Assembly: GCF_006345805.1 (NCBI RefSeq)
Contig: NW_021836131.1
Span: 186,001-250,000, forward strand
Length of the DNA: 64,000 nucleotides
Source: Octopus sinensis
Taxonomy: Eukaryota
Direction: 5' to 3'
The translations under genes were made by a program, and so were the position numbers. Position 1 is the first letter of the stretch, and each line of letters opens with the position of its first letter. Shown in pieces: positions 1,791 through 57,789 of this stretch. The notes under the pieces were generated by a model. That model searched no databases. It was not told the origin of the DNA and worked only from the letters and a program-made list of their open reading frames with translations.

Positions 1791-1970
1791 GAAAGGGCAG
1801 ATTAATTGTTTGTGGACCAATGATTAATTAGTCATATTAGTATGACTCATAATAATTTTGATTATAAATTTTTAATCTGAAAGTACAAAAATTGATTATT
1901 TCAATAATTTGACACTTAAAATATTTTTATAAAAGTTTTTTATTTACATTTTCCCAACTAAAAATAGATA

Positions 1971-3457
1971 CAGGGTATTTCATTAATATATCCTCTAATT
2001 TCATAAATATATCCTCTGATTTCATAAATAAATCCTCTTATTCCATAAATATATCTCCTAATTCCATAAATATATCTTCTTATTCCATAAATATATCGTA
2101 TAATTTCATATAAATATCCTCTTATTTCATAAATATATCGTTTTATTGTGCACATAAAACTATCATGAATAGAAAATCTAGAATTTCAATGACACAAGAA
2201 AAATTTGAGACAATAAATAGATTTTATCTAGAGAAAACTACAAAAGAACTATCCAATATAACTTTACTACATGAATCCACAATAAATAAAACAATCAAAA
2301 AAATTCAAAATTGTCAAGACGAAGCTTCATATCTGGACGGACGCAAAAAGGCAAACAAATTAAGCTTGTTTTCTGAAATTCAGAATATTCTTGGAAATGA
2401 CAATTCTTTAACTCAAGTGGGGCTAAAGCAAAAACTTGCCAAAAATATTTCGTTGCCACAGTTATGTCGAGACGTTAAAGAAGCAGGACTGAAAAGAAAA
2501 AGACTTAAGAAAAAATCTAATATATTATTAACAGAAAGTAATATTGACAAAAGAATGACTTTCTCTTTAACGGTATCTGGATTTAAAACCAGAAACTTGT
2601 TATTTCTGGATGAATCCGGATTTAATTTGCATACCTCAACAAATTATGGATATGCAGAAGTAAATCCGACACTTCTCAACAGTCGAGCCATCTTTTCACG
2701 ATGTCCCGACCGTGACCCCACATACTTTCTGTATGTACGGTGAATGGTTTGTGGTCCATTTCCACGATCCCCCCCATTTGCCTCTACGAGAGACTCCAGT
2801 GTTCTATGGACAATTTCCCTATCGGTATGGTCCTTCAGTAGGTTGATAGATCTTTCTTGAATTTTTTCGATTTTCAGTAGGTTGATAGACCTTCAGTAGG
2901 TTGATAGATAATGTTAAATTTCATCATTCTTCAAATGTTGTTAATTTTTTCGAAACACATAGTGTTTAGTATTTGTTTTTACCTTCTTATTCACCTTGAC
3001 TTAAATTCTATCAAAAATGTATTTGGGACAATAAAGGCGAATCTGAATTCAATACGTCCAAGAGCTATGAATCAGAAGGCTTTAAAAGAAAACTTGAAAG
3101 ATGTTATACAATCGCTTTCTTCTAATTCAATGTTTACCGAGTACTACCGGTCATTTTGGAATAGAGTGAATGCGATTATTAACAGAATTAATTAACATTT
3201 GTTTTTTAAATTAAAAGTTGGTTTTTGTTAATGTAACTTGAAATATACGTATACGACATACGAACATTACTACAAGAATTACTACATTATATAATTATTT
3301 ATAATATACGATATATTTATGAAATAAGAGGATATATTGATGAAATTATACGATATATTTATGGAATAAGAAAATATATTTATGGAATAAGAGGATTTAT
3401 TTATGAAATTAGAGGATATATTTATGAAATTAGAGGATATATTAATGAAATACCCTG
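1971..3457 (+). mobile_element. Tc1/IS630-type DNA transposon, disrupted
   Basis: TA-CAGGGTATTTCATTAA ... TTAATGAAATACCCTG-TA ends; long TIRs built from ~21-bp tandem repeats; ORF from 2165 with LFLDESGFNLH (D1), later DNVKFHH (D2) and an LNSIKNVFG remnant. The core is replaced by a foreign insert. Confidence 0.9.
2665..2908 (-). mobile_element. Captured LINE fragment inside the Tc1 transposase
   Basis: 2665-2874 is the near-identical reverse complement of 32333-32542 (about 3 mismatches by eye), followed by re-copies of ttcagtaggttgataga. Confidence 0.9.
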
Positions 3458-3609
3458 TATATAGGCATATTTCAAAAATAATTTACGTTGAAAAATATAA
3501 GCCCTATTCGATTATAATAATTCGTAGCCCTAAAATGTGAATTAGATCTTGATGTTATCAATCATCATAGATTTTTAAAGTAAAGTCAAAAAATAATTTC
3601 ATAATAAAT

Positions 3610-8059: not shown

Positions 8060-10466
8060 TTTATCTTTGTTATGTAGTAACATGCTAAGTCATATTCTCC
8101 CAAAACAGCAATAATTGGATTATAAAATTCAGGGCAATTTTGATGTATCAAATTGCATAATCTATGCCAGTGATTCTCAACCGTGGTGCATGTGCACCAT
8201 TTTTGGTACATGGAAAATACTCGAATGGTGCATGGAAAAAAAATTGGTACATGGTATTATTTTTTTTCTACAACTCTTCAAAAGTTAATCACTCATCATG
8301 ATCTTGCGCGAAAAAGCTTTTAAGCTATTTCATAGATGGGTTACTTGCATCCTACAAAATTGCCCATATTGTTGCTAAAAATAATGCTACCCATGTTTCG
8401 GGTGAATCGTTAATAATACCTTCTCTCGCAGTTGTTTTACAAGATATGTTGGGACATAATCCATCTGAAATTTTAAAAGTGCGACCATTTTGATGTGGTT
8501 AGAATTTACCTTTGAGTAATGATACGATTCGTCGCCGAATTGACGAAATAGCTGAAAGCGTCGAAGATTCCTTAAAAAATGTACTTAGAAAAACTGTTTT
8601 TTCGTTGCAGATTGACGAATGTCTGGTATGTGATTATAAATCTATATTAATGGCCTATGTTAGGTAGGTATTTTAAATAATATTTTGTTAAGATTTTTTA
8701 ACGAACACGTAGTTTTTTGTGAAGAGATTTTGTTTATCAGACCTTTGATAACAGAATCTACCGGAGAGTCAATCTTTAATGTATTGAAAACGTATTTTGA
8801 AGAAAAACAAATTCAATTTTCCAATTTAATTGCATGTGCTACGGACGGTGCAATGGCCATGGTTGGGAAGTACAAAGGATTTGCGTCTTTTTTGAAACAA
8901 AAATGTTCGAATTTAATTCATATTCATTGCGTATTACACCGGCATCATCTTGTTTCGAAAAAAATTTCCGCTTTTTTAAATCAAGTTCTGAATCTCGTCA
9001 TAAAAACGATCAATCGAATTAAAACAAGTCCAAAATCTGATATGATCTTTAGGAAATTTTGTATAGATAGGAATGAAGATTATTTAAGACTCTTGTATCA
9101 TACTGAAGTTTATTTTTGTTTTTTATCAAAGGCACTGCTTTACAAAGATTTGTAAACCTTTTACCATTTCTTGAACCGGAAAATGAAGATGAATTAGCAA
9201 GATCGATTTCCGAAAATGAAAAATATATCTATTCCTTGGCTATAGTACGTTTCCATTTACGAGGCCGGGAATTTAGTTAGTTAATAACTATTTGTCACTT
9301 ATTTCAGTTTAATACTATCTATTATTTAAATTGGATTTTTGCTAAATTGAATGAAATTTCCTTGAAAGACGTGATTAATATGGAAATACCAAAATGGATG
9401 ATAAATCCTTTTTTACTAGCACTGAAGAGGTGCAAATGGATTTGCAAGATGAATTTATTGGTATTTTTTATTATATTATTTTTTATAGAAATTAAATATA
9501 ATTATTCTTACAAGATTTTGTTTGAAAGCCAGGATTTGTCTACATTTTGGCGAAAAAAGGAATTTAAAGACAAATTTCCAAAGATTTGGGAACAAATAAT
9601 TAAAATTTTATTATGTTTTCCAACAACATATCTTGTGGAATCAGGATTCAGCGTAATAAACAGAATATTGAGCGATGAACGTAACAAGCTTGATATCTGC
9701 TCGAGAGATTATTTTTAACACGTTTGGACCCTGATATTCAGAAATTAATTAAAATGCATGAAAACTAAGGCTCTCATTAAATAGTTAGAAAAATATTTTA
9801 AGTCTCTAAATTTAATTAAAAGAAATAAATAAGTCTTTGTTTTTTGGTACACGAAATAACTTGGTTTGGTACATTGACTTTTCTTTTTTGGGACACCAAA
9901 AAAAAGGTTGAGAATCACTGCCTTAAATTAATTCCAAAAATTTTACCAGATTAGATTAAATTTATTTATATTTATTAGTTGACTTCTTATTATATCTGTG
10001 GCTACGGCTTTATATAGGTTAAATTTTTCATAAGATTGAGTTTTCACTTCAAAGACAATAATCACAAAATTTTCAACAATTAAGCCAAAAACTCTTCGAC
10101 TACCGGAATATAGCCATTCGATACGTTTTTGATATAGTTCTTGAATTTTTTTCAATTTATTAAATAAATATAACATTTTTTTGTTATCTCTTGTCCCGTT
10201 ATATGTTCTACCGTCGATTGAAGAAAAAACTTCTACAAACAAGTCTATATTGTATCGAGAACAGACTGGTTTTTTCAAAAAGTAAACATATTCCTCGCTT
10301 TTTTTGAATCCAATTTTTTAAGAATAAAGTCCCATGACAGCTTATTGGTGACTAACCCATATTTATGTATCCATTTATCTGCGCTTATTTGTTCCCGAGC
10401 TTCAGGTGGCACATTGTTACTCTTTTCTGAATTTAGCAAATTCTGGGTAATTTGTATCATGTTCAT
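8060..10466 (-). pseudogene. VWA3B: VWA3B-like gene, N-terminal part, frameshifted and interrupted by a hAT element
   Basis: ISADKWIHKYGLVTNKL, then (after a 1-nt frameshift in an A6 run near 10315) GFKKSEEYVYFLKKPVCSRY...DGRTYN...YQKRIEWLYSGSRRVFGLIVE...FNLI, colinear with the VWA3B N-terminus as I recall it. hAT lies at 8168-9920; a possible further exon at 8060-8160. Confidence 0.7.
8168..9920 (+). mobile_element. hAT (Buster/Charlie-type) transposon, degenerate, with intron-containing transposase
   Basis: TIRs CAGTGATTCTCAACC / GGTTGAGAATCACTG; LPLSNDTIRRRI, FSLQIDE, CATDGAMAMVG, IHIHCVLHRHHL, FPTTYLVESGFS; introns at 8479-8502, 8664-8692 and 9461-9488. Confidence 0.92.
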
Positions 10467-13992: not shown

Positions 13993-16900
13993 ATGTACAA
14001 TAAAGTCTGTCTTTATTAGTTTTGCTTTTTGTTATTAATCAAAATTATATCAAAACTAATAAAAAGAAATAAATTAAAAAGAATAGGTATTCCAAGACTG
14101 CATTTATGGACATATTGAGCTTTCCCCACTATGTGTAGCCATAATGGACACACCAGAGTTTCAAAGACTTCGCTGGCTTAAACAACTAGGTCCCAGCCAC
14201 TTGGTATTCCCCTCGGCCACCCACACTAGATTCGAGCACAGCATCGGGTTGGGATTGCCTATAATTTATGTCAAGAGTGTGCTATTTGGCAGGACAGTTC
14301 ATTCGACATCTCCGGGATGTACAACCTGAACTGAATATTACTCCCTCAGATGTCACCTGTATAGAGATTGCTGGGTTATGCCATGATTTGGGTTATTTTT
14401 ACTGGCTAATATAGGCCACGGACCCCACAGTCATTGCTTTGAACGTTTCATCACCTCAACAGGAAAAAAATTTAATGTATTTTTATAATTTAAAAATAAA
14501 TTATTTATTAATATATGTCGTAAGTTATAGCGTCCGGGCCAGTTCTAAGTGTCCGGAGTGATAAATCCGATTTATCACTCCAAATCATTATGATTTTGGG
14601 AATAAATTTTATTTGTGTCGCCTAACGTCCTATACGGGGATACGGATGAAATTATTGGTAAAATGTACCCGCATGTTTTTCTGGTAGGCAAAAAAATTGA
14701 AATTTTATTTTTATTGAATTAGATAGGAAATGGGTCGAATTGGGGATAAAATGTCTATATTTTTTTCCGGATTTTTATATTAAAAAGTTTAAATTTTTAT
14801 TTAACAGTTTCACGTTTTTTAAACTGTTCATGGTGCGCTCGATACACATCAATAGCAAAGGAGAATATGATTCTATTTTACTATATCTATTGTCTAAAAA
14901 ATATGAACCTGGAATGACAGAAACCAAAAAGCGAACAATTCGAAGAAAGTGTAAAACTCTTCATTTTGCAGACGATCAATTATTCTCTTATTCCAAATCA
15001 GGAACACATAAAATTGTTATATGTCCTTTTGAACATGAAAGGATTCAATCTATTCTTTGTGATGAACATAATGAAGGACATCCTGGGTTCAATAAAATGT
15101 GTTATCTAATTTCTCAAAAATATATTGGAATTAAACAATGTATAATTCGTGATTTTGTATCAAAATGCATACCGTGCCAATCATTTAACTCTTTAAGTAC
15201 TTGTGAAAATATCAGAATGATTTCTGTGGAAAAAAAATACGAAAGATTTATCGCCGACTGTATAGATCTAAGGCGGTATTCTGCAAATAATGACAATTTT
15301 AAATGGATACTTACTGTCATCGATGCATACACAAAGTTTGCATGGTCATTCGCGTTAGAGAATAAAACATCACAAAGCATCTATAATGCAATTGAGAGTT
15401 TATTCCAGACTGTCGGACCTCCAATTTATTTTCATTCGGACAATGGAAAGGAATTCCGCAACAAAGAAGTTTCAAAACTTCTTGATGATTGGAAAATAAC
15501 TCCGATATATGGAAGACCAAGGCACCCACAATCTCAAGGACAAATAGAAAGATATAACCAAACTCTCAAACGTTGGTTGGGGAAGACTTTGTTCGCAACA
15601 GAATCTATAAGGTGGAGAGAAATTCTACAGAAGGTGGTGTATAAATACAACATAACTTGTCATCGCGCAACTGGAAAGTCACCATTTTGGTTAGTCTCTT
15701 TTTATTTACCCAGTCTATTTTACGGAATAACGGGTTTTAATATTTTGCCATGTGGAGGCGCAGAAGAAGAGATTAATTCGGAATCGGAAGAAACGGAATT
15801 ATCTTTAGAAGTAAAAACTCATAATGTAAAGTATAAAAGAAAAGTTACAGAAGACGCAAATAAAAATTTTCGAAAAAAAGATATCACAATTGGAGATAAT
15901 GTTACAATTAAAATTGATTTCGATAAAAATATAAAAACAAGAAAATATCCACTCACTAGTTTTTTTAGCAAGGAACAATTTCTAGTAGTGGAAGAAGTTT
16001 CTCTGCATTCCGTTCTCGTTGAGAATTGCACATCTGGTGAAAGGAAGACAATTCCAAAGTCAATGATTAAAAAAATTAACTTTTAAAAAATTACATTTTC
16101 ATTTTATATTCAATCAATTTGTAATGTTTCTTTAAAAATTGTTTCATAATATAAGTGAACTTTTGCTTTGTTTTATTCGACATAGGAGACGTTGCTTCTA
16201 TACTGGAAGAAGGTCATCTCGTCTAAACCCTTTTCGTCACATAAATAAGGACCGGAAGAGTTTGCACAGAATCATATGTAGCGGTTGAATACAGACTCTG
16301 TTGAAAACTGAATTTATATTATACGAGACTGTTTGGGACAATGTTTGTAAATTTTATTATCTATTTTTATGTTTAGTTTCGGTTTTCGATTTAGTCAATA
16401 TCTATATTTTATAGTCTTTTTAGCAATCAACAAATAGTTATAAAACTAAAGGATTTGAATTGAATTAATTGAGGTTAATTGTGAGAAAAAATTCGCATGG
16501 AGTAACTTACATTTTATGTTCGTTACTATGACGCTCAATCACCTGATTGATGAAAATTTCTTTGTTTAATTTCCGCATTCTTGTTAACTGAGTTACTTTT
16601 TTCAAATTTTAATAATTTAAAAAATTATTGAATTAACAAAAGTAATCATTAAGAATTTCAGATCTTAAACAAAGAATTTACATGATTTGGAGTGATAAAT
16701 CCGATTTATCACTCCGGACACTTAGAACGGGCCTAGACATTATAACTTACGACAATATATATAATAAGAAAATAATCAAATTAGCATGAAAATAATTCTA
16801 TAAAAATGTTCGAATATTTAATCTCACAAAATAATCTTGGCCAAGCATTACTAACACATGGGCTGGACTCTGAGGACATTGAGTTCATAAAACTCCTAAT

Positions 16901-18092
16901 ATGCCCCTTCTCTTCCCAAAGTTTAAAAGTCAGAGCTAATAAGCAATTTCTCTACCAGGTAAATGCCATTGATTAATTAAGATTGTCGCTAACCAAAATA
17001 ACGGAATTGATGTTGATAAATTGGATTATTTGGCACGTGATACATTCCATCTTAATTTACCTTTCAATGTGAACCCACTTAGACTGATTATTACTGCACG
17101 TGTATTAACTGTTCCTGAGAAGAATATGATGATGATTTGTTTTAGGGATAAAGTGGGGTGTTTGAGATATTTTTAGTCACTTGTGGATATTGCTACTGTT
17201 TTTAATCACCGGATTTTGATGCATCGAGTTGTGTACCAACATCCTGCTGTTACAGCAATCAGTCAAATGTTTGACTATTTTTAATATTTAAAAAATATAT
17301 TTAGGAAATATTATTTAATTTAATAATATCAATTTTTTTAGGTTTTTTGATGTTTTTACTGAAATATGTCAAATTTACAAATTTCGTTGTTGCGATGGGT
17401 TCTTTTTAAACTAATATTTAAAGTTTATATCGACCAATATTGGAATGCTTTGGCGACATGGCCGCTCTATCAGCCATGACTGACGAAATATTCTCCCCAT
17501 ACTTTCTTCAATATGCCCAATCTTTATACTCAAATGAACAGTCAATCCAAGAACCAGGTCCTTACAAACGGGCACGTGCAATTCTGAGTAGATTACAGAA
17601 AAGAGAACTCTACAAAATTGTGGCGAGTGTAGAAATTTGCCGATCCTCGAAAGTAAATTTATTCTGCAATTATTTTCAGGTTGAATTTCGATCTAAATTT
17701 GCTGATTTTATTTCCAGGGATTTGTTTCATGACTTTGACCACGTGCGTGGGCTTTATCAATCAGACTTGTTGACTTTCCATGTTTCGATTGACTGCTTAG
17801 ATTAATTTAGATTTCTTCGTTTGGTTATGGAATTGAGAGGAATCCGTTTGATTGTGTGTTTTTGTTTCGGAAATGTGATTCTATGCCATTTAAAGCTTCG
17901 GCTGAAGTATTTTGTGATTTTTTATTTTAGATCAATAAAATGTTGCCGGATAGTTTAACTGAACGTCGGCTGTGTGTCATAACTAAAACATCCGATAAGA
18001 AGTCGATTTTGGCTGTAAAGGAAGCCTTTTCGTTGTTTATTGAGGAATATTTAATTGGACAATACATTCCAGGGACGCTTATTATTTATTAA
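13993..18092 (+). CDS. SAMHD1: SAMHD1-like dNTP triphosphohydrolase (HD domain, no SAM domain), about 11 exons
   Basis: MYNK|[12 protein letters not shown]...[16 protein letters not shown]...HTRFEHSIG|VCYLAG...GLCHDLG|HGPHSH...|HENNS...|[20 protein letters not shown]...HRVVYQH...NPFD...LPDSLTE; introns mostly 23-29 nt; stop TAA at 18090-18092. Confidence 0.93.
14516..16754 (+). mobile_element. Ginger-type (integrase-like DDE) DNA transposon, apparently complete, in a SAMHD1 intron
   Basis: TGTCGTAAGTTATA...TATAACTTACGACA ends, ~70-bp imperfect TIRs, ATATA duplicated at 14511-14515 and 16755-16759, internal integrase ORF. Confidence 0.9.
14830..16086 (+). CDS. Ginger-type transposase (H2C2 zinc finger + rve, D-D35-E), one 24-nt intron
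   Basis: HNEGH...[29 protein letters not shown], then 35 residues to QGQIE. Removing 15690-15713 restores GKSPFCLFYG. Confidence 0.9.
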   Translation: MVRSIHINSKGEYDSILLYLLSKKYEPGMTETKKRTIRRKCKTLHFADDQLFSYSKSGTHKIVICPFEHERIQSILCDEHNEGHPGFNKMCYLISQKYIGIKQCIIRDFVSKCIPCQSFNSLSTCENIRMISVEKKYERFIADCIDLRRYSANNDNFKWILTVIDAYTKFAWSFALENKTSQSIYNAIESLFQTVGPPIYFHSDNGKEFRNKEVSKLLDDWKITPIYGRPRHPQSQGQIERYNQTLKRWLGKTLFATESIRWREILQKVVYKYNITCHRATGKSPFWLVSFYLPSLFYGITGFNILPCGGAEEEINSESEETELSLEVKTHNVKYKRKVTEDANKNFRKKDITIGDNVTIKIDFDKNIKTRKYPLTSFFSKEQFLVVEEVSLHSVLVENCTSGERKTIPKSMIKKINF

Positions 18093-18839
18093 CTTATTTT
18101 CGGTTTTTTTGGTTAATAAATTAAAAATTTTTGTTTTAATCCTATTAAAAGAGCGCTTGGTCACATATATAGATTTATAGAAGGTCAGTTGATCAGTCCA
18201 AGCCTGCCAGAAATCAAAATTTTCAAGGATTTTGGTTTCCTGTAAAACTGAGAGTCGCAGTTCTCAACTGACAAAGTTCTCAGTTGAATGAATAGAGATA
18301 AGTCATTATTACTAGCAACATACGTTTGTGTAAATATCTCAAAATGAATAAATTACAAATTGATCAGAAATTTATTAAATTTTATTTTTGATACTCTCGT
18401 GATGAAAAACGCATGTTTAAAGGATATTTCCATTAAACTCAATTATCTAGATATCAAATCATAATTATAAACTGTGCAAATTTTTAATGGGAAATATTCT
18501 AAGATTATAAGTAGAACAGTATATCAGATAAATTAGGATGCCAGTCAACATAGATTATTTTAAAAAAATAGAGCGAGAATTTCATTAAATATAGTTTTTT
18601 TAATTAAATTTATGATTCTACAGTGGACGATTATTTCAGTGTAGGTTTTATAAAATTATTTTCGTTTAAAATTTAATTCCGGGATCAACATTTCTAAAGT
18701 TATTCTCAAAGGAAAATAATTATTTCATGCCAATCTATCAGCCACTTTTAGAATAATATACTCTTTTATATCAATTTTTAACTTTTTGCGTATTATTATA
18801 TAGTACTGTCGGAAAATCATAAATTTAATTAAGTTTTCC

Positions 18840-21867: not shown

Positions 21868-22728
21868 TGTCGCGACCCACGCTGGCGACCATCCCACGCT
21901 GGCGACCATCAGTTTGACAGGTTATGACCTTCAGTTTGACAGGTGATTTAAACCGGAAAAAATTCATTTTAAGAAATGGTTTAACGTCATTTTACAAAAA
22001 AAATTATGGTTCCTCTCAAAAGATGTTAGCATGAAAAAAGCGACTCAATTTATCATTATTAATGATCGGTATATTTGCGACTCCTAACTCATAGTCTTTA
22101 TCTAAAGGACGAGAATAACCAAAAACACAAATTGGTCATTTGTCTGGACAATGAAATCGAGATGAGGACACTAGCATTCGCCATTCACCAAGAAAAATTG
22201 GAAACAATACGGCGCACATATTACGAACAAATTTCGACCTCTCTAAAAATCAAATTATACAACATGCTACTGAAACCGGTCTTATTGATGACACACCACT
22301 CGGCGATCCCAGGTTATAATCTTATTTATAATTTAGATGAAAATAACGAGGCATCGTTTGTCGAAGATGAACTTAATGGTAAATTTACAAAGTATTTATT
22401 TTTAGAAACGAATAATAAAAGATTGTGGGACGAATCCGTCATTGAAGCTACACAGATTTGAATCCCCATATGAAGAAAAGGGAAAAGTAAAAAATATAAT
22501 GTCTAAATATAGATTAATGGTTAGTTGTCTTTCCTAACAAACATTTAGTTCGAATTACGAAATAGTTACTATGAATAGAGATAAAAAATGTTAAGTTTTT
22601 TGATTTTTTAGCAATTATCTTTAGTCAGTAATTAGTGTCAAACTATGTAGGTCGCCCTGTCAATCTTGTCAACAATGAAGGTCGCTCTGGTCGCCAGCGT
22701 GGGATGGTCGCCAGCGTGGGTCGCGACA
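21868..22728. mobile_element. Non-autonomous TGT..ACA (Ginger-like) TIR element with 5-bp TSD
   Basis: TGTCGCGACCCACGCTGGCGACCATCCCACGCTGGCGACCA / exact reverse complement at 22688-22728; TAATG duplicated at 21863-21867 and 22729-22733; internal RTE-like scrap (ISTSLKIKLYNMLLKPVLL). Confidence 0.88.
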
Positions 22729-34130: not shown

Positions 34131-34850
34131 TGTATTTTTTAAAGTTTAGAACCTAAATGATAAGATCAAAAATCGTTATATTCCTAATTTATTATATCAT
34201 CCCCCTAGCCTAGCGACTAGCATGGTTCCCTGGTGACCTACACACTCGACAGAGTTACCTTCTGTCTTGACATTTAATTACAAACGTAAATAATTCATTA
34301 TAAGGAAGGGCTCAACGTTATGCTAATTAAAAATGGTTTCTCCCAAAAGATGTTATTTTAGTTTCAATCCTTAGGTTACATAAAAATTATACTAAATAAC
34401 AAAATATTTTAAATGTAATACTTAAAAAACTAACAACTAAATCTAAAAATACAAACTTATGAAAAAAGATAAATTTATAATAATTGATGATCGGTATATT
34501 TACCATTTCTAACTCGCAGTCTTCATCTAAAGAACAAGAATAACCAAAAACACAAATTGGTTATCTTCTTCCACAGAGATAAAGACTTGGTATTTGATAT
34601 TCACCAAAAATACCACTAAGAATAAAAAAGCTTTATAATAAGAAGAGTGAATTCCATTTTATTTTGAACCGCCCAATTATTGAACAGATTATAAGACTGC
34701 AAAATTTGTAAAGTTGCCAGAGCATTTAAAGTATTTTATAATAAATATTCTTAAGGATCCGATTTTAATTATTATATAACTGCAAAAATTCCAATAAAAG
34801 ATTTCAGGGGGATCTTATTGATGTTAACAAATAGATATGATTGGATATTG

Positions 34851-35070
34851 TGTCGCGAGCCGAGCGAGCGACCGAGCGCAGCGAGCGACCACTCAATTTC
34901 TAGATGCGATCAATCAAACAATTTATAAATTGACAAATACCCATGGAAGGAAGGAAGGAAGTTTTATTGGAAACAGAGAAGGGTTAAAGGTTAGGGGGGA
35001 GTTTGTATAATGAAACAATAGGACTACCCTATCGACTTCTTCCCAGAAAAAAAAAGAGACCCCCTCAAGT

Positions 35071-35112
<42 letters not shown>

Positions 35113-36852
35113 CTTTTCTACCTCTGCAGGTACGTCCCAGTGACAATTGAGTTGGATTTATAACCACTTATAGCTTTTTCGACAGTTTCACCGACCATGG
35201 AGGATTTACTTTCAAGCCACAGGGGGATTGGATCTTCAACTTTTTGGTGGTAAGCAAGCTTCAAAGCGAGCCTGCGAGACTTTTCAAATTTAGTTAAGAT
35301 GGTGTCCTTCTTTTTAGAGAAGTACCATCCCTCTTTTCCGTATAGTAGTCCCGGTAGGATCACCGTATTGAAAACGTAGAGGAAAGTATCAGGCTCCAAA
35401 TTTAACTTCCTCAGGCAGAACAGAGCATTAGTTGCTTTCCTTTTACTTAATTTTGCGTTTTCGAGATAGTTTCCCTTTCATCGATGAACAAGCCAAGATA
35501 TTTAATTGAGTTTTGTCGAGGTATGTTCTTGATCAGGCACGGTAAATTTATTAAATTTCTGCTTTCTGTGATTCTCAGTAATGCGGACTTCTCACGCGCA
35601 ATAATGAACATATTTTCATCGCACCATTGCTCCACTGTATTCATATATGATATAATCCTTTGTTCGGATAAGGCAGGTTTCGATGAAATGTCAAGGATTA
35701 CAACATCATCGGCGTATATCAAAATTTCCGTCCGTGTGTTGACAGGAGACGGCAGATTGCTCATCACAATGTTGAATAATAGAGGACTGAGGACTGATCC
35801 TTGAGGGACGCCTCTTTTAAGTTTCAGTTCATCCGAGTCATAGTTCAGAAAGCTTATCACAGAGCGCCTGTCGCGGAGGAAGTCTTTTAGCCATAGGAAT
35901 AGTCCTTTGTCTATGTGACACTTCGCCAGATGTCTAAGGAGACCGAGGTGCCAAACCATATCAAAGGCTTTTGAGATGTCTAGAGACACAATTGTCAGAC
36001 ACTCTTTGAAATCCAGAGCCTTTACAATCGACGAATTGAGTGTATAAAGACAGTCAGCACAGGAACGACCCCTCCGAAAGCCCCACTGCACGTCTTTGAG
36101 ATAACCATTTCTCTCGACGTGTTCAGAGAGTCGTTCAAACATTACCCTTTCCATTATTCGACTGATGGTAGGAATTAGGCTTATAGGCCTATAACTTGTC
36201 GCCAAGTAACCAGGTTTTCCAGGCTTCCGTATCATCCTTACCTCCGTCAGTTTCCATGAAGAAGGGACGTATCCCAAGCTCACACTGCGGGAGAAGAGAC
36301 ATCCCAAATATTCGTAAAGTTGCTTGGGAGCTTCTTTGAACATGCGCATGGTTATCTTGTCCTTTCCCGGAGCGTTATTTTTGGAGTATCTAACTGCATT
36401 TTCCACGTCTTTGCACGTTATAGATTCCGAGCACATTGGTAATGAGCTAAGATTGTCTTCCAACTCTTTTTCCATATCAAACAAAGCTGAATCAGATAGA
36501 TTTGTATCCGGATTGACTTCTTGTATTCTTTTGAGACTATCAGCAAATATGTTCGGGATTTCTTCATGAGATGCAGGGGATCCATCTTGTTTTAGCAGTT
36601 TAGGTATAGTTTTCTCAGACCCCTCTCACAACCTAAACCAAATTAGCGTTCAGTATTCATTGATTTTACTTTTTCTATTAAGATCTACTTATAAATTATT
36701 TTATGGGATTCAATTGAAAACTTAAGTTATTTCAATTTTAATTTTAAATCATGTTAAAATTTTAAATAATTTAATAAATATATTTGTTGATGACAGGCTT
36801 GTTAGGTGTCAAAGTCGCGTCTAGCGCTCGGTCGCGCGCTCGGCTCGCGACA
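34851..36852. mobile_element. Non-autonomous TGT..ACA (Ginger-like) TIR element carrying a LINE
   Basis: TGTCGCGAGCCGAGCG... / ...CGCTCGGCTCGCGACA; TATTG duplicated at 34846-34850 and 36853-36857. Confidence 0.85.
34945..36620 (-). mobile_element. 5'-truncated Jockey/I-group LINE (RT domains), one frameshift region
   Basis: APGKDKI, YRPISLIPTISR, QWGFRRGRSC, SLDISKAFDMVWH, GVPQGSVLSPLLFN, YADD, IKYLG; 39-nt T run at 35074-35112; (GGAA)n tail near 34945-34960. Confidence 0.92.
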
Positions 36853-42993: not shown

Positions 42994-43992
42994 CAGTGAA
43001 CCCTTGCAAATTGGCAATTTGTGCTACATACAAATTTTATGGCCAATTTGAAAAAATCAATACTTAGAAAAATAAAATAAACAGTTTAAATTTTATTAAA
43101 AAATTCAATCCCTAATTCCTTTTTATTTGCTCTTTTTAATTTTGCTTTGTAATTTCTTATTCCAGTAATGAGCGAAACATAATTCTCATTTTCTGCATTA
43201 CAGTAAAGTTCCCTTTCTATTTCAGTTAATCTTCTTGCAATATCTTTTCTATCGAGTGGATCAGGCTTATAGGATTTGGGAATTTCTTTGAATTCTTCAC
43301 GAAAGGAATTAATGTCAACTTCTCCATCAGTTCGCACCTCTCCATGTAATTTTAGCATTCTAAAAACGTGTCTCTTTTTGAATTTTGCCAAAAATCCATT
43401 AAAATTTTTAAAGTTACTAAGTTGTAACTCTTCGGCAAAATACGCAGCCTTAAACGATATTAAGGAATCATTCAAAAAACCACCTAGAAATTAGTTTTCA
43501 ATTATTACCTTTAGATTCTATTGTATCCATCCATTCGATCAATTTTTTTTCAAGCGTAAGAAATTTTGGTTTGTGAACAGCTTTAAACGAATTTTGATAA
43601 ATTTTCTAATCCAGGAAAATAGAATTTTTATTAAGCAGTAGATTATTGATGGTCTTTCTCGAGATCGTCTTGCGGAATAAATGTGAGAATGTGTCAGCCA
43701 TAAGCTGAAACGAAACACTGTCATTTTCTTCCTTATAGTTTATAATTTGTGTTTTTTCAAGAAAAGTGAACCGAATATAACGTCGAGGAGAAATTTTATA
43801 AGACATATGATTAAAAAATAATTTATTTTCTGTTTTTTTTCTAAATAAAAAAAATTAATTCAAAAATTGTGGCCAATTTGAGAATTTGCCAATTTACTAA
43901 GAAAATTAATTTTTTTCTTGGTAAATTGTGAAAAAATGACCAATTCAAAAATTGGCTAATTTGCGAGGTCGCCAATTTGCGAGGGTTCACTG
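42994..43992 (-). mobile_element. pogo/Tigger element, internally deleted
   Basis: TA-CAGTGAACCCTTGCAAATTGGC / GCCAATTTGCGAGGGTTCACTG-TA; CENP-B-type HTH pieces (FTFLEKTQII; EWMDTIESK|GGFLNDSLI...NGFLAKFKKRH...LHGE); 25-nt intron at 43484-43508. Confidence 0.9.
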
Positions 43993-44509
43993 TATTTTAA
44001 AACTTCTAGGTCCTAGAAGTAAATAATGAAAAATTTTGTCAAGAAAAATATCCTAGTATAGAGAAAAAGTGATATTTATTTCATTCATTGATTCAATGAC
44101 GTAAACCTAGATATACACTTGTAGTTTTTCAATCCAACAACACTGTGCAAGAACTGAAAGCGTATATGAAAATCTGCAGTGCTAATAAGTCCAATCACGA
44201 AAGAACTGTGTGCTACCAAAATAAATCCTCTCGAAGTAGGATTGCATATAACAGTAAATTAATGAGTAAATTTTTATAACATTGTGCCGTAATTTAATAA
44301 TAGTTAAGTTTTAGAGTGGAAAAAATCAAAAAGAAAATAACGTTAAGTTAGTAAAGGAAAATTATAACACGTAGATAATAGTTATATGTAAAATCGAATA
44401 CTAAATTTATAATATTAGTATTAATACTTTTCCATTTTGTTTGACATTACGAGGAAATAATTTTTAATTCTTACAATAAGAATAATACAGATGAAAATGA
44501 TTGTAGCCA

Positions 44510-47500
44510 AAAATATTAAAACATATAGATTAGTTGTAGTTGTGCTCTTAGTGGTGGGGAACAAATTATTAAAACATATAAATCACTTGTAGTTGAGCTC
44601 TTAGTCGTGGGGACTAAAATATTAAAACATATAAATCACTTGTACTTGTGCTCTTAGTCGTGGGGACTAAAATATTAAAACATATAAATCACTTGTACTT
44701 GTGCTCTTAGTCGTGGGAACTAAAATATTAAAACATATAAATCACTTGTAGTTGAGCTCTTAGTCGTGGGGACTAAAATATTAAAACATATAAATCACTT
44801 GTACTTGTGCTCTTAGTCGTGGGGACTAAAATATTAAAACATATAAATCACTTGTAGTTGAGCTCTTAGTCGTGGGGACTAAAATATTAAAACATATAAA
44901 TCACTTGTAGTTGAGCTCTTAGTCGTGGGGACTAAAATATTAAAACATATAAATCACTTGTACTTGTGCTCTTAGTCGTGGGGACTAAAATATTAAAACA
45001 TATAAATCACTTGTACTTGTGCTCTTAGTCGTGGGAACTAAAATATTAAAACATATAAATCACTTGTACTTGTGCTCTTAGTCGTGGGACTAAAATATTA
45101 AAACATATAAATCACTTGTAGTTGAGTTCTTAGTCGTGGGGACTAAAATATTAAAACATATAAATCACTTGTAGTTGAGCTCTTAGTCGTGGGGACTAAA
45201 ATATTAAAACATATAAATCACTTGTACTTGTGCTCTTAGTCGTGGAACTAAAATATTAAAACATATAAATCACTTGTACAAGTGCTCTTAGTCGTGGGAA
45301 CTAAAATATTAAAACATATAAATCACTTGTAGTTGAGCTCTTAGTCGTGGGGACTAAAATATTAAAACATATAAATCACTTGTAGTTGAGCTCTTAGTCG
45401 TGGGGACTAAAATATTAAAACATATAAATCACTTGTACTTGTGCTCTTAGTCGTGGGGACTAAAATATTAAAACATATAAATCACTTGTACTTGTGCTCT
45501 TAGTCGTGGGAACTAAAATATTAAAACATATAAATCACTTGTACTTGTGCTCTTAGTCGTGGGAACTAAAATATTAAAACATATAAATCATTTGTAGTTG
45601 AGTTCTTAGTCGTGGGAACTAAAATATTAAAACATATAAATCACTTGTAGTTGAGCTCTTAGTCGTGGGGACTAAAATATTAAAACATATAAATCACTTG
45701 TACTTGTGCTCTTAGTCGTGGGAACTAAAATATTAAAACATATAAATCACTTGTACTTGTGCTCTTAGTCGTGGGAACTAAAATATTAAAACATATAAAT
45801 CACTTGTAGTTGAGTTCTTAGTCGTGGGGACTAAAATATTAAAACATATAAATCACTTGTAGTTGAGCTCTTAGTCGTGGGGACTAAAATATTAAAACAT
45901 ATAAATCACTTGTACTTGTGCTCTTAGTCGTGGGAACTAAAATATTAAAACATATAAATCACTTGTACTTGTGCTCTTAGTCGTGGGAACTAAAATATTA
46001 AAACATATAAATCACTTGTAGTTGAGTTCTTAGTCGTGGGGACTAAAATATTAAAACATATAAATCACTTGTAGTTGAGCTCTTAGTCGTGGGGACTAAA
46101 ATATTAAAACATATAAATCACTTGTACTTGTGCTCTTAGTCGTGGGAACTAAAATATTAAAACATATAAATCACTTGTAGTTGAGCTCTTAGTCGTGGGG
46201 ACTAAAATATTAAAACATATAAATCACTTGTAGTTGAGCTCTTAGTCGTGGGGACTAAAATATTAAAACATATAAATCACTTGTACTTGTGCTCTTAGTC
46301 GTGGGGACTAAAATATTAAAACATATAAATCACTAGTAGTTGAGCTTTTAGTCGTGGGGACTAAAATATTAAAACATATAAATCACTTGTAGTTGAGCTC
46401 TTAGTCGTGGGGACTAAAATATTAAAACATATAAATCACTTGTAGTTGAGTTCTTAGTCGTGGGGACTAAAATATTAAAACATATAAATCACTTGTACTT
46501 GTGCTCTTAGTCGTGGGAACTAAAATATTAAAACATATAAATCACTTGTACTTGTGCTCTTAGTCGTGGGAACTAAAATATTAAAACATATAAATCACTT
46601 GTACTTGTGCTCTTAGTCGTGGGAACTAAAATATTAAAACATATAAATCACTTGTACTTGTGATCTTAGTCGTGGGAACTAAAATATTAAAACATATAAA
46701 TCACTTGTACTTGTGCTCTTAGTCGTGGGAACTAAAATATTAAAACATATAAATCACTTGTACTTGTGATCTTAGTCGTGGGAACTAAAATATTAAAACA
46801 TATAAATCACTTGTACTTGTGCTCTTAGTCGTGGGAACTAAAATATTAAAACATATAAATCACTTGTAGTTGAGTTCTTAGTCGTAAGGACTAAAATATT
46901 AAAACATATAAATCACTTGTACTTGTGCTCTTAGTCGTGGGAACTAAAATATTAAAACATATAAATCACTTGTACTTGTGCTCTTAGTCGTGGGAACTAA
47001 AATATTAAAACATATAAATCACTTGTACTTGTGCTCTTAGTCGTGGGAACTAAAATATTAAAACATATAAATCACTTGTAGTTGAGTTCTTAGTCGTGGG
47101 GACTAAAATATTAAAACATATAAATCACTTGTAGTTGAGCTCTTAGTCGTGGGGACTAAAATATTAAAACATATAAATCACTTGTAGTTGAGCTCTTAGT
47201 CGTGGGGACTAAAATATTAAAACATATAAATCACTTGTAGTTGAGCTCTTAGTCGTGGGGACTAAAATATTAAAACATATAAATCACTTGTACTTGTGCT
47301 CTTAGTCGTGGGAACTAAAATATTAAAACATATAAATCACTTGTAGTTGAGTTCTTAGTCGTAGGGACTAAAATATTAAAACATATAAATCACTTGTACT
47401 TGTGCTCTTAGTCGTGGGAACTAAAATATTAAAACATATAAATCACTTGTACCTGTGTTCTTAGTCGTGGGAACTAAAATATTAAAACATATAAATCACT

Positions 47501-47793
47501 TGTAGTTGAGTTCTTAGTCGTGGGGACTAAAATATTAAAACATATAAATCACTTGTAGTTGAGCTCTTAGTCGTGGGGACTAAAATATTAAAACATATAA
47601 ATCACTTGTACTTGTGCTCTTAGTCGTGGGAACTAAAATATTAAAACATATAAATCACTTGTAGTTGAGCTCTTAGTCGTGGGGACTAAAATATTAAAAC
47701 ATATAAATCACTTGTAGTTGAGCTCTTAGTCGTGGGGACTAAAATATTAAAACATATAAATCACTAGTAGTTGAGCTTTTAGTCGTGGGGACT
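44510..47793. repeat. 53-bp satellite array, about 62 units, two main monomer types
   Basis: Consensus aaaatattaaaacatataaatcacttgta(g/c)ttg(a/t)gctcttagtcgtggg(g/a)act; period 53 (e.g. tcact at 44583 and 44636). Confidence 0.98.
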
Positions 47794-48605: not shown

Positions 48606-51600
48606 ATAAATTTTATTTATTTAACCCCATTCTCCCCCTAAATTGGGAAGGATTGCGGGACGAAGAAAACCAACAGACTTTTTAGAGTTACACCATAAGT
48701 CAAGGATAGAATCAATCTTGTATGATTTTTTTAAGGCGGCAAGGTTTTTACATTTCAGAAAAAGGTGACTTACTGTGTGTCGTCCGTCAAGCCAGATTGG
48801 ACAACTCAGATCGACATTTTTGTCGAGTTTGTTTTGATAGTCGAGTAGTGAATGATGTTGCTCACAGTTCATTCTGATCTTTAAGGCTGAGATCCTTTTC
48901 AGCTGTATTTATTTTTGGAGGTTGGTTGTTGAGGATATTGTTTACAGTGAAGTGTGTTTAGGCAGGGCTTCGTTAATAGTTCTTTTATGTTCGATGGTTT
49001 TTTGTTAGTGAATAAGTTTAGAATTTTATAGTAGTGAAGTCCTGGCGTGTTTTTGATGTTCCTTTCAGGATTTTTATTGTCGTGAGATTGCGACTTGGAT
49101 GATTTTTGAGCATACTTGGTCAGGCAAAAATTGGGTTCCATGAATGTCAAATTGGTCTGCAAGTTTGATAGTGTTTGTCTCCTAATGCATATGTCGGCCG
49201 GAATAGACTTTATACAACTCGTACTAATTCTATGTGCTTGGTTTTGGATTGATTGTAATTTCTGAAGGAATGTTTTTGACGACAGGGGCCCCCATGATGG
49301 ACTTGCATAGTTCAATGTTGGAAAAATATATTGTTTGTATATAAATGTTGGACATTCTTTGTTTTGTTCAATGTCGGTTCCTGTGAGTGAACAAAGAGCA
49401 TTCATTGTACATTTGCATTTATAAGTCAGTTTTCAATGTGCTGGCAAAATGATAGGGAGGTATCATAGGTTATCTCGAGTATTTTGAGTTTTTGATGTGA
49501 AGGATTTGATTTTGTTGGTTGTGATTGTCGGAATGAAATTGTGTTCTTCTGTATTACTTGTTAGAAAGTAGCTGATGATTTAGTTAGTGATAGAGATAGC
49601 CCGTTTAGAGTAATCTAGTTATACAGATATTAATGAATGGTTGAACTTGGTTACATGCCGCCATTGGATCTGTGTTCGATGATGTGATAGTAATATCATC
49701 TGCGTTTAAGAACAGAGATACATTTTCTGGTGGTGTAGGAATGTCACTTAGGTAAGTGTTGAAAAGTGTGGGAAATGGGACAGATGACTGGGAGGATACA
49801 AGTACAGTAAAGTTTCTCGAATCCGCCAATTTCGGGGATCGGCAAAATCTGGCGGATTCGAGAATTTGGCGGATTCGAGAGACTTATCGATTTTTTAATC
49901 CATTAATAATTTAAATTATTAAGCCAAAATAATTAATTAAAAACAAAAAAATCAGTAAGTTTCGACTTGTTTCTTCGTAGAGTTTGGATCATTGAAGATC
50001 CAATGTTTTCAATATACTCAAGATTTTCTATATTAAAGAATTCTTCTTGATTATAGAACTCTTTTAATTTGTTTAAAGCGATAAAAGCCTCGTTAATGGT
50101 AACAACTTTCTGACTTTGTTCACACGGTTCTTCGCTAATTTCTTGTTCTATTTTTTCTGAATTATTTAATTCAAGTTCTTCACTTTCATTATATTCAATC
50201 TCAATATAAAGACTTTCTTCTAACGGATCAATAATATCCATTTTTTCCAGAATATTATCATAATTTTCAATTAAGGGATTTTCATAATTAATATTTTCAT
50301 TGTTTTGAGTCCATTTTGCATGAATGAAACAATTTAAAATTAAGGAACTTTCTATTTTGTTCCAAGCATAATATGTAAATAATATTGAATCTTTTATGCT
50401 TAGTTGTTTGTGTGCAACATAGGGGTTTGTCCCAGCTTCAATTTTTTGAATTATATTAGAAAATTTTAGAGAGTTGAATTTACATTTATACGATTTAATT
50501 ATGCCCTGATCCATGGGCTGTAAAAAAGATGTTGTATTAGGTGGTAGAAATAACATCTCAATTTGTTTTAATTCAATCAATACCTAATGTAAATTTCATG
50601 AAATTCACCTTATGTGCAGGAGATTGATCTACAACAAGCAAAATTTTTCTATCTTGTTTTCGCAATTCCATTTCCCATTTTAATAGAAATTGATTAAAAA
50701 TTCTGCTATCCATCCATGCTCTCTTTGAATTTGAATATATAACATATTTTTTGATATCGAAATTCTTGAAACATCTTGGATTTTTAAACAACCCAATTAG
50801 TAAGGGTGTTCGCTTATCTGTACCGTCAACATTTGTACATAACATAACAGAAACTCTGTCTTTCAGGACTTTATAGCCAGATTTAATGGTTTTACAAACA
50901 CTCTTAGACGGTATCATTTTGTAAAATAAGCCAGTTTCATCGGCATTATAAACATTTTGAGCTCCGTAAAGACTGATTTTATTTTTGATTAATTCAATGA
51001 AATCTGATACTAATTAGGGTCAAAATTTGGAGTTGCAGATTCTCCATGCATATTACGTAATTTCAAACCATTCCTTTTTTTAAATTTAACTAACCACCCT
51101 TTGCTTCCTTTGAATTCAGTAATCCCGAGATTCAATGCAAAGGCTTTTGCTTTCTCAGTAATAATCCTATCATTTAAAATGGCTCCTTTAAGATCCATTG
51201 AATTGACCCAAGCAATAGTATTATCATCGATTTCAGCAAGCTTTAAATATTGTTTGCGGGAAATGTCAGATCTTAGGTTATGAAACATAATGTTAGATTC
51301 TCTTTTACTTTTCAGATCATCAATAGATCGGCGAGAAACAGGCAAGTTGTATTTTTTTGAAAAAATCTCAGAAATTTTTAGTGAAGATAATTCATTATTT
51401 GTTTGAATAAACTTCAAAATCTCAATTTTTTGATTGTTTTTTAGTCTTGTACAGTTACGTTTCATTAATACAACAACAAAGACAGATGTAACGTGTTAAT
51501 AAATTGATTATATATCAGTAAATTTAATTAAAAAAATTATTTAAAATTAAAACACATGGCGGATTCATTATAAAAAATATGGCGGATTCGAGAATTTGGC

Positions 51601-51960
51601 GGATTCGAGAATTTTTTCTAGGAAAAATGGCGGATAAGAGAATTTATTAATTATAATTGGCGGATTCGAGGGTATGGCGGATTCGAGAGTCGGCGGATTC
51701 GAGAGACTTTACTGTATTTGAGAGTTTTTTATTTAGTTGGATATAACCTTGTCTCCCACTGAGGTAGTTGGATAACCATCGTTTTGAGTTATTACCAATG
51801 TTAAATGTCTGTAGCTATGTTGCGCTTTGCTGATTTGAAGTTGATGAGATATTCTGTTTAGAATTAGAAGTTCCATTATTTTTGAAGTGGTGCATAGAAG
51901 TGTAATTGGTCTGTACGATGATAAGTCGAGGCTGGTTTATTTGGTTTTAATTTCGTGATT
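48606..51960 (-). mobile_element. Jockey/I-group LINE 3' half, degenerate, split by a pogo insertion
   Basis: RWLSNYLSGRQGYI (~51740-51780) then PTLFNTYLSDIPTPP...NADDITI (49605-49800), YKQYIFPTLNYASPSW, C-terminal CP...HTVSHLFLKC, (TAAA)n tail near 48606-48620. Confidence 0.85.
49805..51714 (-). mobile_element. pogo/Tigger element, near full length (one frameshift, one intron)
   Basis: TA-CAGTAAAGTTTCTCGAATCCGCC / GGCGGATTCGAGAGACTTTACTG-TA; HTH, GSKGWLVKFKKR, YNADETGLFY, VVDQSPAHK|VLIEL...LPPNTTSFLQPMDQGII; intron at 50584-50608; frameshift near 51012. Confidence 0.93.
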
Positions 51961-56115: not shown

Positions 56116-57789
56116 CAGGGGTTCTCAACCTTTTTAGCTCATGGGCCAAATCGATAATTAAGAATATCTTTGGGGGCCGCACAAAAAATATTTTATGTTA
56201 TTAATGAAAAGAAGGCTTTATTAAGTAATAAAAATCAATGCGAGACTTGATTCTGTTTGGCGTCTATTATTTTGTCGAAACAGGGAGTAAAAGTAGAACA
56301 CGATGTGCGTAAAGTAGGTGTCCATCAGTCAATCGATTTCGATACTTTGTTTTTATTTGCGTAAGTTTGCTGGAAAGAGCTTCACATGTATACGTTGATC
56401 CGAAGACTGATGCATTTTTTTGAGCATTATCGACCAAGTTCGGATATTTCCACTGTGGAATTCGACCCCAAAAATCCAATAGTTCACTTGACTTAAATAG
56501 CGCGGTAAGTTGTAAATCTGCCTGCATTTCAATTAGTTCCAGTTGATATATGTATGGAGCGGTTGCAGCATCTGTTTCCATAGGTGACGAAAATATTTTC
56601 ATAATAGGTAGAGCTTCTTTAAAATCATTAAAACGTGTTTCGAATTCATCGATTAAGTCACTAATAACGCAGATATATTTTTCATAGGATCCATCTTCCC
56701 TGTGATTTGAAAGTATTGGGAAATGAATGGTAACTCTACTTTCAATTTGTATATTCCAAAGTTGTAGTTTTTCGATAAATGCAGAAACCACTCCGTACAA
56801 TTCATGACATAGTTTGCCCTTACCCTGCAGAGAAGTATTCAAAATTGAAAGGTGCGTAGAAATATCTACCATAAATGCTAAATCTGCAATCCACTCCTTA
56901 TCAGTAAGCTGAGGATAAAATATCTTATTGGCAATAAAATGCATAATCTCCGGGAGAAGGTCATAAAATCTAAATGCGATTTAGTTTAAATTTATATAAC
57001 CTTTTTAGACATGCTGCCCGACTCAACCATCGTACAGTTGTATGCATAAGCAAATCTCCATACTCGGAATAAACACGGCCATTTGTTCTGTATCACTGAT
57101 ATCTTTAGTGATGTCAAGAGCAATAGAATAGTGTACGAAAAACTTGGATTCAGTGAGTAGCTGGTAATGAAGATCGTCAGATATGCTCTCAATTCTCCGA
57201 GAAACTGTATCATTGCTAAGCTGTAAGTTTCGACCAATTTTTTTAATTTCTGAAGAGCAACATTCTTCTGTAAATATATGAATAGCTTGCTTAATGAATT
57301 CTCCATCTGAATATGGCTTCATATTTTTTGCAAGTAGATTACTTATTTTGTATGAAGCTAATGTTACGGATCTTGATAAGTGGGGCTGTTTTAACAAATT
57401 CGTTTGTAGTTTGCGATTTGATTTCAGAGATTGAAATTTTATTTTTCTTGATTCACCTTGAAGTGAATCATATTCAGAAGAATGTTTCGAATAATGCCTC
57501 TCGACATTATATGTCTTAAGACATCGTATTACAGAATGACAAATTAGGCAATGTACGTTACCATTTTCTTCAAAATCGAAAAATTTTTCTTCCCATTCGG
57601 GGTTAAATGCACGATTTTCATGAATAATTTTTCTACTTCGTTTAACACGTTTATCAGACATCACAAACAATATTATTTAAACATTAATGTACAAAATATT
57701 TAATATAAAAACAAAAAATATTTAATATATTTTTATAATTTTAATCGGGCCGCACCAAAATTGTGGCGTGCCGCGGTTGAGAACCGCTG
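56116..57789 (-). mobile_element. SPIN/GTF2IRD2-type hAT, internally deleted
   Basis: CAGGGGTTCTCAACC / GGTTGAGAACCGCTG; ENRAFNPEWEEKFF...CLIC, LSNDTVSRR, YSIALD, then VRWLSRAACLKR|FYDLL via 31-nt intron 56970-57000, FGSTYTCE. Confidence 0.92.

Follow-up and report, generated by a model that had tools for sequence, protein, structure and literature searches.

A Ginger-type transposon in a SAMHD1 intron of a probable dicyemid, with inverted repeats that are predicted to pair and may keep the intron spliceable

A 2,239-bp transposon of the Ginger type lies within intron 4 of a SAMHD1-like gene, and we slightly favor the reading that the filled intron is still spliced, with predicted pairing of the element's inverted repeats leaving ~69 nt of intron outside the duplex. 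The 64-nt intron of an intact SAMHD1 gene, probably in a dicyemid, has received an element of a mobile family; about the identity and mobility of this element we are close to certain.

The host gene occupies 13993..18245 (+ strand) of the window, by which we mean the whole 64-kb stretch of DNA analyzed. Its 13-exon model encodes 496 aa with no stop, so the exons on either side of the insertion are open, as the initial annotation held. Exons 1 to 7 lie at 13993-14004, 14087-14247, 14276-14391, 14415-14476, 16785-16958, 16982-17152, and 17177-17268, and exons 8 to 13 at 17342-17398, 17424-17652, 17680-17781, 17811-17906, 17931-18076, and 18173-18245 (all on the + strand); the 12 introns measure, in order, 82, 28, 23, 2308, 23, 24, 73, 25, 27, 29, 24, and 96 nt. 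The 3′ exons were positioned by hand so that the frame stays open, and the last intron (18077-18172, 96 nt), a probable GC-AG intron, is the least certain part of the model. The protein aligns with a fish HD-domain protein (P0014) at 37% identity over 460 columns (E 1e-75), an alignment that spans the intron 4 junction, and its first coding piece matches HD-domain proteins at 60 to 76%; exons 5 to 7 are covered by RNA-like contigs from public sequencing runs. The model contains no SAM domain, and the protein collections searched held no SAMHD1 protein from a parasite. Retained throughout are the HD-domain motifs RFEHS, CHDLGH, HxxH..., HE, DVDKxDY..RD, and YQH, whose metal-binding and catalytic roles we assume from human SAMHD1, and by these motifs the gene appears to be an intact SAMHD1-like dNTPase. 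Since such motifs sit on both sides of intron 4, an active enzyme requires that this intron be spliced; the first residue 3′ of it is the histidine of HENNS, presumably the equivalent of human SAMHD1 H233.

Intron 4 (14477..16784, + strand, GT...AG) is 2,308 nt long when filled. Removing the element (14516-16754, with TGTCG...CGACA ends) and one of the two flanking ATATA copies (14511..14515 and 16755..16759) leaves exactly 64 nt, the size that had been estimated approximately in the initial annotation. The terminal inverted repeats, at 14516..14588 (+ strand, starting TGTCG) and 16682..16754 (- strand, ending CGACA), are 73 nt each and 92% complementary. When duplication lengths of 2 to 9 were tried, only 3 and 5 gave matches, so we take the target-site duplication to be 5 bp; a 4-bp duplication is ruled out by the lack of a match at that length. 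The empty site contains ATATAT. After removal of a 53-bp satellite (44348-47700, more than 60 copies of the unit at ~95% identity), five TG...CA pairs with perfect 14-nt inverted ends occur in the window, three of which have a 5-bp duplication. In a chance control of 20 shuffles of this sequence, one such pair arose in 4 of the 20 shuffles and a 5-bp duplication in none, and the repeats and ATATA duplication that had been proposed stand on firm ground. Each inverted repeat also contains a 27-nt palindrome with a 12-bp stem (14555-14581 and 16689-16715; z ~-3.7 versus shuffles), possibly a binding site for the transposase.

The transposase open reading frame (ORF) (14830..16086) lies on the + strand, in the same orientation as SAMHD1, which agrees with the earlier description. 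That description also gave an uninterrupted integrase of 410 aa: the domains are present as claimed, but the frame encodes 418 aa unspliced and reaches 410 aa only after removal of a 24-nt intron (15690..15713, + strand, GT-AG, in-frame and stop-free). The protein comprises an N-terminal extension with a YPYY-like pattern, a zinc finger (H80-H84-C113-C116), a catalytic triad (D143, D204, and E240, with D35E spacing), and a C-terminal beta domain bearing the clade motif DFDxN; it has Pfam matches to rve and Integrase_H2C2 and aligns from start to end with stand-alone homologues. Foamy-virus and Ty3 integrases are the closest matches to its predicted structure (mean pLDDT 90.4). The eight residues encoded by the 24-nt insert are absent from all 57 aligned homologues (near-full-length proteins hand-picked from the protein search matches) and form the sole low-confidence segment of the predicted structure; both observations argue that the insert is a real intron. 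The proposal that the element carries a sense gene with its own intron and polyadenylation site is upheld for the intron but not for the site: the lone AATAAA or ATTAAA hexamer near the end of the ORF, a candidate at most (ATTAAA, 16066..16071, + strand), overlaps that end and lies within coding sequence, with another in the native intron.

By its ends and target, the element appears to be Ginger2/Tdd-like, with a YPYY-like N terminus that departs from the published description of that group and with named relatives that are microsporidian. In the accessible text of the description of Ginger elements (PMC2836005), Ginger2/Tdd (TDD-4, TDD-5, and Ginger2-1_NV) shares with our element TGTNR termini with inverted repeats, an AT-rich target, an H2C2 plus DDE core, and the absence of GPY/F. 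Inverted repeats of 45 to 297 bp, sizes of 2 to 7 kb, and the existence of non-autonomous derivatives are further points of likeness, and the group is recognized there by a 4- or 5-bp AT-rich duplication with an RTATAY preference. The 5-bp duplication is that of TDD-4/5, whereas animal Ginger2 families have 4-bp duplications (PMC2836005). Two features set the element's clade apart, as far as this text describes Ginger2: a Y/F-P-F-Y/F-like N-terminal extension, where Ginger2 is described without YPYY, and the C-terminal DFDxN, which is missing from the description of Ginger2/Tdd (PMC2836005). Our comparison of the YPYY-like pattern is with the published wording for YPYY, which the clade's pattern fits. 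Among the 57 homologues, the spaced positions before the zinc finger are Y/F in 44, P in 38, and Y/F in 38, and the window's copy is degenerate.

Other placements were considered and set aside. Ginger1 as described in the same source resembles the element in its TGTNR termini, in an intron-bearing transposase gene, and in an extension N-terminal to the zinc finger, but the CCGG/CCGT 4-bp target, the GPY/F module, and the OTU or Ulp1 domain of Ginger1 (PMC2836005) are all absent, and we reject membership. A Gypsy long terminal repeat (LTR) retrotransposon is rejected on the lack of a long direct repeat, the single ORF in the element, and the position of its protein apart from polyproteins in a tree. 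IS3EU/GingerRoot, IS481EU, and Polinton elements, according to the parts of the two sources available, lack an HHCC finger and make 6-bp (or 4-, 15-, or 25-bp) duplications, with IS3EU/GingerRoot ends mostly TA (PMC10045372, PMC6839031); these groups are ruled out by the element's HHCC finger, 5-bp duplication, and TG ends.

A library-wide search returned 118 proteins at E <1e-30, the best at 43% identity, and no near-identical protein (none closer than 51%) was present in the collections searched. The organism is known for 4 of 30 proteins looked up by name, namely one stand-alone microsporidian protein and three long animal polyproteins; a separate protein search yielded a second microsporidian relative. 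The stand-alone integrases of Enteropsectra breve (KAI5152326.1, P0129) and Cucumispora dikerogammari (P0007) have the same 400- to 480-aa architecture and motifs as the transposase, as do the metagenome proteins P0001 to P0004 and P0123 to P0125, but their identity to it is only 28 to 47%, in a comparison that covers the proteins. At such distances, the microsporidian relatives do not amount to a demonstration of transfer. The accessible text of one survey mentions Ginger in microsporidia solely as a domain-based call (PMC5751038). A quick tree of 72 rows (the best 50 short matches, P0008, 20 long matches, and the window protein, with 37 further short matches omitted) places the window protein among stand-alone proteins of 350 to 600 aa, and a branch with 99% SH-aLRT support separates 18 of the 20 long polyproteins; containing no labeled Ginger1 or Ginger2 sequence, this tree separates the clade from LTR polyproteins only. 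Motif content follows the same split: GPY/GPF occurs in 0 of 88 stand-alone matches (and not in the window protein) versus 11 of 20 long polyproteins, and DFDxN in 33 of 88 versus 0 of 20. Scans for related loci recovered 94, but with DFDxN in just 1 of the best 45 they did not sample the clade and are uninformative about its ends. The nearest atlas clusters to the transposase are integrases without names, at 0.92 to 0.95. The open literature (that is, without Repbase and subscription journals) contained no report of Ginger elements in dicyemids or octopus.

The window probably derives from a dicyemid, a tiny parasite of octopuses, as judged from the 23- to 29-nt introns that make up 8 of 12 in SAMHD1, from animal-type genes (PDZ, CPAP, NT-C2, and RhoGAP) in the window, and from the published distribution of intron sizes: in the text available to us, introns this short among animals are limited to dicyemids and myxobolids (PMC13644364). 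With intron 4 taken at its empty size, the other 4 of the 12 SAMHD1 introns measure 64 to 96 nt, which weakens the initial picture of a spliceosome tuned to ~25 nt as the basis of a natural test. The novelty of such a test is likewise reduced, since kilobase introns are already annotated in Dicyema japonicum and Henneguya salminicola (PMC13644364). In D. japonicum, the median is 24 nt, the mean 39 nt (SD 94.5), the 90th percentile 32 nt, and the longest intron 2,855 nt (PMC13644364, supplement S14); in H. salminicola, annotated with long-read cDNA, the median is 27 nt, the 90th percentile 978 nt, and the longest 16,378 nt; and in T. kitauei, the longest is 11,464 nt (PMC13644364). SAMHD1 intron 4 resembles these kilobase introns among medians of 22 to 27 nt, which the accessible text of that survey does not tie to transposons ("transpos" has 0 matches in its supplement) and whose mechanism it leaves open (PMC13644364). 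With kilobase introns on record for tiny-intron animals, we regard the case as mostly ordinary, yet because the D. japonicum maximum rests on gene prediction, verifying an intron of this length in a dicyemid would retain some value. A transposon within an intron is also to be expected, given that the D. japonicum genome is ~49% repeats (PMC6736024) and that the window is full of LINE, hAT, and pogo/Tc1 remains.

Eleven public runs were listed, and contigs of four (X1 to X4) were compared with 16632-17268, which covers the element's right end and exons 5 to 7. None of the 11 is on record as holding RNA; we term X2 and X4 RNA-like because the repeat depth in them is low and an exon-exon junction is present. 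X11, a run of 2,574 million letters from the sample that also gave X1, contains next to no window words and X5 to X10 small shares of them, and these runs stand outside the evidence. In X1 and X3, both DNA-sized, the inverted repeat runs into five sets of non-SAMHD1, mostly AT-rich flanks (two places on three contigs in X1 and three places on five contigs in X3). The summed depth of the repeat in these runs is 10^3 to 10^4, and a 49-nt X1 contig identical to the right repeat has a depth of 1,605; run depth is no copy number, and we use the flanks as qualitative evidence. In most X1 repeat contigs, the first base inside the repeat is not that of the element (depth 3,361), whereas the contig with the element's own inner left end has a depth of 4.4; this ratio offers a hint, and only that, of a large non-autonomous family served by few autonomous copies like the one in SAMHD1.

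Because the repeat occurs with other flanks in two DNA-sized runs, we regard the family as mobile rather than domesticated. The window does hold one copy of the element in its 64 kb, on a long branch with its nearest homologue at 47% identity, as a fixed, domesticated single copy might; but both ends and the duplication are intact, and the other insertion flanks in X1 and X3 largely refute this explanation, which we consider barely credible. The initial annotation had named domestication as the outcome that would count against mobility, and its suggestion of a potentially active element gains from these flanks and from the full catalytic protein of a copy that is intact and seems young; the insertion may be polymorphic. 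A further alternative, very improbable in our estimation, is that the family is common to the octopus host through recent host-parasite transfer and that the high repeat depth in DNA-sized runs comes from host DNA. It would account for the repeat depths of X1 and X3 (2.2 to 2.7 Gb of contigs under two species labels), where no cover of SAMHD1 exons accompanies them, and for an X3 sequence, at a depth of 233, that nearly matches the inner left end of the element. Yet gaps and depths of this sort prove nothing; parasite DNA at low coverage would also assemble as repeats only, and we do not use the absent exon cover as evidence; moreover, the 24-nt transposase intron is a parasite-type feature, and no protein closer than the 51% noted above came to light.

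In both X2 and X4, the loose 5′ letters of the contig that starts at 16785 are those of the end of exon 4, which gives the exact exon 4-exon 5 junction; donor 14477 and acceptor 16784 are used in related individuals. The two runs differ from the window by 2 to 3% (in X4, 12 differing letters in 463 aligned bases). They also contain the element's left end plus 92 to 107 inner bases at a depth of ~5, and neither has a contig linking the repeat to SAMHD1 intron sequence. With this divergence and no repeat-intron contig, the spliced junction may stem from an empty allele. Even short introns are partly retained in these RNA-like contigs, including part of intron 5 and, in the main contig, all of intron 6, so SAMHD1 splicing may be inefficient in general. 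Intron 6 (17153-17176, 24 nt) ends in an in-frame stop, and its retention in the main contig of both runs possibly reflects inefficient or regulated splicing.

For the filled intron, the difficulty lies in its decoys. The left repeat contains the five AGs nearest the SAMHD1 donor (14524, 14530, 14542, 14549, and 14558, or 48, 54, 66, 73, and 82 nt from it), all followed by stops within 0 to 5 codons; the AAG acceptor at 48 nt and the TAG acceptor at 54 nt, for example, meet a stop after 1 and 5 codons, respectively. Beyond the left repeat, the next AG is 211 nt from the donor. The right repeat contains the GT nearest the SAMHD1 acceptor (16692). Separately, an AAG acceptor at 14787, 311 nt from the donor, is in frame with the transposase, and splicing to it would fuse SAMHD1(1-117) to the transposase. 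In the minimum-energy equilibrium fold of 14447-16814, the two repeats form a duplex of -113 kcal/mol that engages 68 of the 73 bases of the left one. Its stem contains the GT at 16692 and each of the five AGs that lie up to 82 nt from the donor, and 39 plus 30 nt (69 nt) remain outside the duplex. The 73-bp duplex would thus bury the decoy acceptors and nearest decoy donor, loop out 2.1 kb, and restore a size of intron already spliced in SAMHD1 (73, 82, and 96 nt), and the insertion is probably tolerated, since pairing between its ends is predicted to shrink the intron to ~70 bases. The fold is no evidence of selection, as any element with inverted repeats folds alike. With the pairing distance capped at 300 nt, the fold loses ~100 kcal/mol and the AG at 14524 is no longer paired, and because the right repeat is transcribed 2.1 kb after the left, a decoy could be used early. 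For Tc1 and HSMAR2, experiments show that inverted repeats pair in animal pre-mRNA (PMC12779559). There, as in our model, the processing of a transcript depends on base pairing between the inverted repeats of a DNA transposon within the pre-mRNA; SOS splicing, by contrast, excises exonic elements without the spliceosome, and, in the portion of that work available, intronic Tc1 in C. elegans is not removed by it, whereas the duplex proposed here would merely shorten an intron for the spliceosome (PMC12779559). The open literature (without subscription journals) contained no report of repeat pairing that shortens introns in tiny-intron animals.

Taking these points together, we lean toward the view that the filled allele yields useful amounts of full SAMHD1 mRNA, though it would be spliced less efficiently than the empty allele, as competition from the transposase transcription unit, through premature 3′ end formation, is predicted. 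That the duplex is needed for this mRNA, not merely present, we put forward tentatively. Some of the same spliced outcome belongs to another explanation, possible rather than probable, in which the filled intron undergoes ordinary long-intron (exon-definition) splicing and the duplex has no role. The kilobase introns of H. salminicola, T. kitauei, and D. japonicum speak for it, and myxobolids splice many long introns without special features having been found in the accessible survey text, so that a duplex may be unnecessary (PMC13644364); on the other hand, long introns occur much less often in the dicyemid than they do in myxobolids, the exons flanking intron 4 are 62 and 174 nt with weak splice sites, and the intron contains 109 AGs as potential decoys where dicyemid acceptors are described as little more than AG (PMC13644364). 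The filled allele might instead be a recent, polymorphic near-null, a prospect that we take seriously but doubt: donor 14477 would join an AG of the left repeat, or the transcript would end at the transposase polyadenylation site, this copy would yield no full-length SAMHD1, and the mRNA in public runs would come from empty alleles. Consistent with this, the five decoy AGs lie within the intron sizes used by SAMHD1 and lead to stops, the element is on the same strand with nine A(A/T)TAAA hexamers across intron 4, introns in D. japonicum are mostly within the 90th percentile of 32 nt, and X2 and X4 hold no evidence of a filled allele. Set against it, the SAMHD1 exons lack stops and frameshifts and keep their catalytic motifs, although a young null would look alike, and among the contigs listed none shows an acceptor supplied by the repeat, in a comparison that covered 16632-17268, the element's right end and exons 5 to 7. 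Were the filled allele a rare null, the locus would be an ordinary insertion polymorphism.

A locus with a 64-nt empty state, a 2,308-nt filled state, a catalytic residue just downstream, and a sharp structural prediction makes a usable test case for splicing, albeit in animals that are hard to work with. The intact 410-aa integrase-type transposase is also a candidate for showing Ginger excision, whose mechanism Bao et al. 2010 called unknown in the text available (PMC2836005). By analogy with retroviral-type integrase chemistry, the transposase would bind the TGTCG ends, excise the element, and insert it into AT-rich DNA at cuts staggered by 5 bp. SAMHD1 restricts retroelements through dNTP depletion, which acts on reverse transcription, a step that cut-and-paste elements do not use. 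For this reason, and because the AT-rich target resembles those of two other TGTCG elements in the window, the bearing on retroelement restriction raised by the initial annotation looks incidental, and we reject a causal tie between the insertion and that role as unsupported.

Head-to-head with SAMHD1, with start codons ~130 nt apart, lies a possible 149-aa spliced gene (13864-13324, - strand) with GT-AG introns of 64 nt (13631-13568) and 27 nt (13510-13484). It consists of two parts typical of the transposase's clade, the N-terminal extension and the C-terminal domain, and lacks the zinc finger and DDE core, the missing core mapping to its first intron; its profile score is 39.9 bits versus a maximum of 7.9 in 498 scored of 500 shuffles. 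The gene model is post hoc, as the first acceptor was chosen to keep the frame. The inverted-end search of the window found no inverted repeats flanking it, and an atlas search with its ORF gave nothing usable. Candidate explanations are a domesticated repressor or an old remnant. An ambitious synthesis would make the SAMHD1 element part of an undescribed third Ginger lineage (YPYY-like, DFDxN, and 5-bp AT-rich duplications) common to microsporidia and the dicyemid, the repeats an RNA clamp that hides kilobase insertions from a spliceosome working by intron definition, transposons with paired ends the chief origin of the long introns that dicyemids tolerate, and the core-less 149-aa neighbor a domesticated repressor of the family; we consider this combination unlikely.

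The window contains further elements with similar ends. A second TGTCG...CGACA element (21868-22728) is 861 bp long, with 41-bp perfect inverted repeats and a 5-bp TAATG duplication; it has weak profile matches to both ends of the transposase (E ~0.04 to 0.05) and seems to be a non-autonomous derivative of another family, with a related, end-less remnant at 34257-34730. A third TGTCG element (34851-36852) has a 5-bp TATTG duplication and a nested 5′-truncated LINE with a reverse transcriptase ORF at 35450-36625 (- strand) and a 39-nt T run at 35074-35112. Other remains of DNA transposons with inverted ends, including Tc1/IS630-like, two pogo-like, and hAT-like ones, lie at 1965-3463, 42997-43989, 49806-51619, 8171-9917, and 56270-57676. 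Outside the window, an element of 1.95 kb lies in a contig of a viral collection (L081:39-1989); its TG...CA inverted ends are 36 bp long, its duplication is ATAT (4 bp), and it contains an integrase frame of 445 aa.
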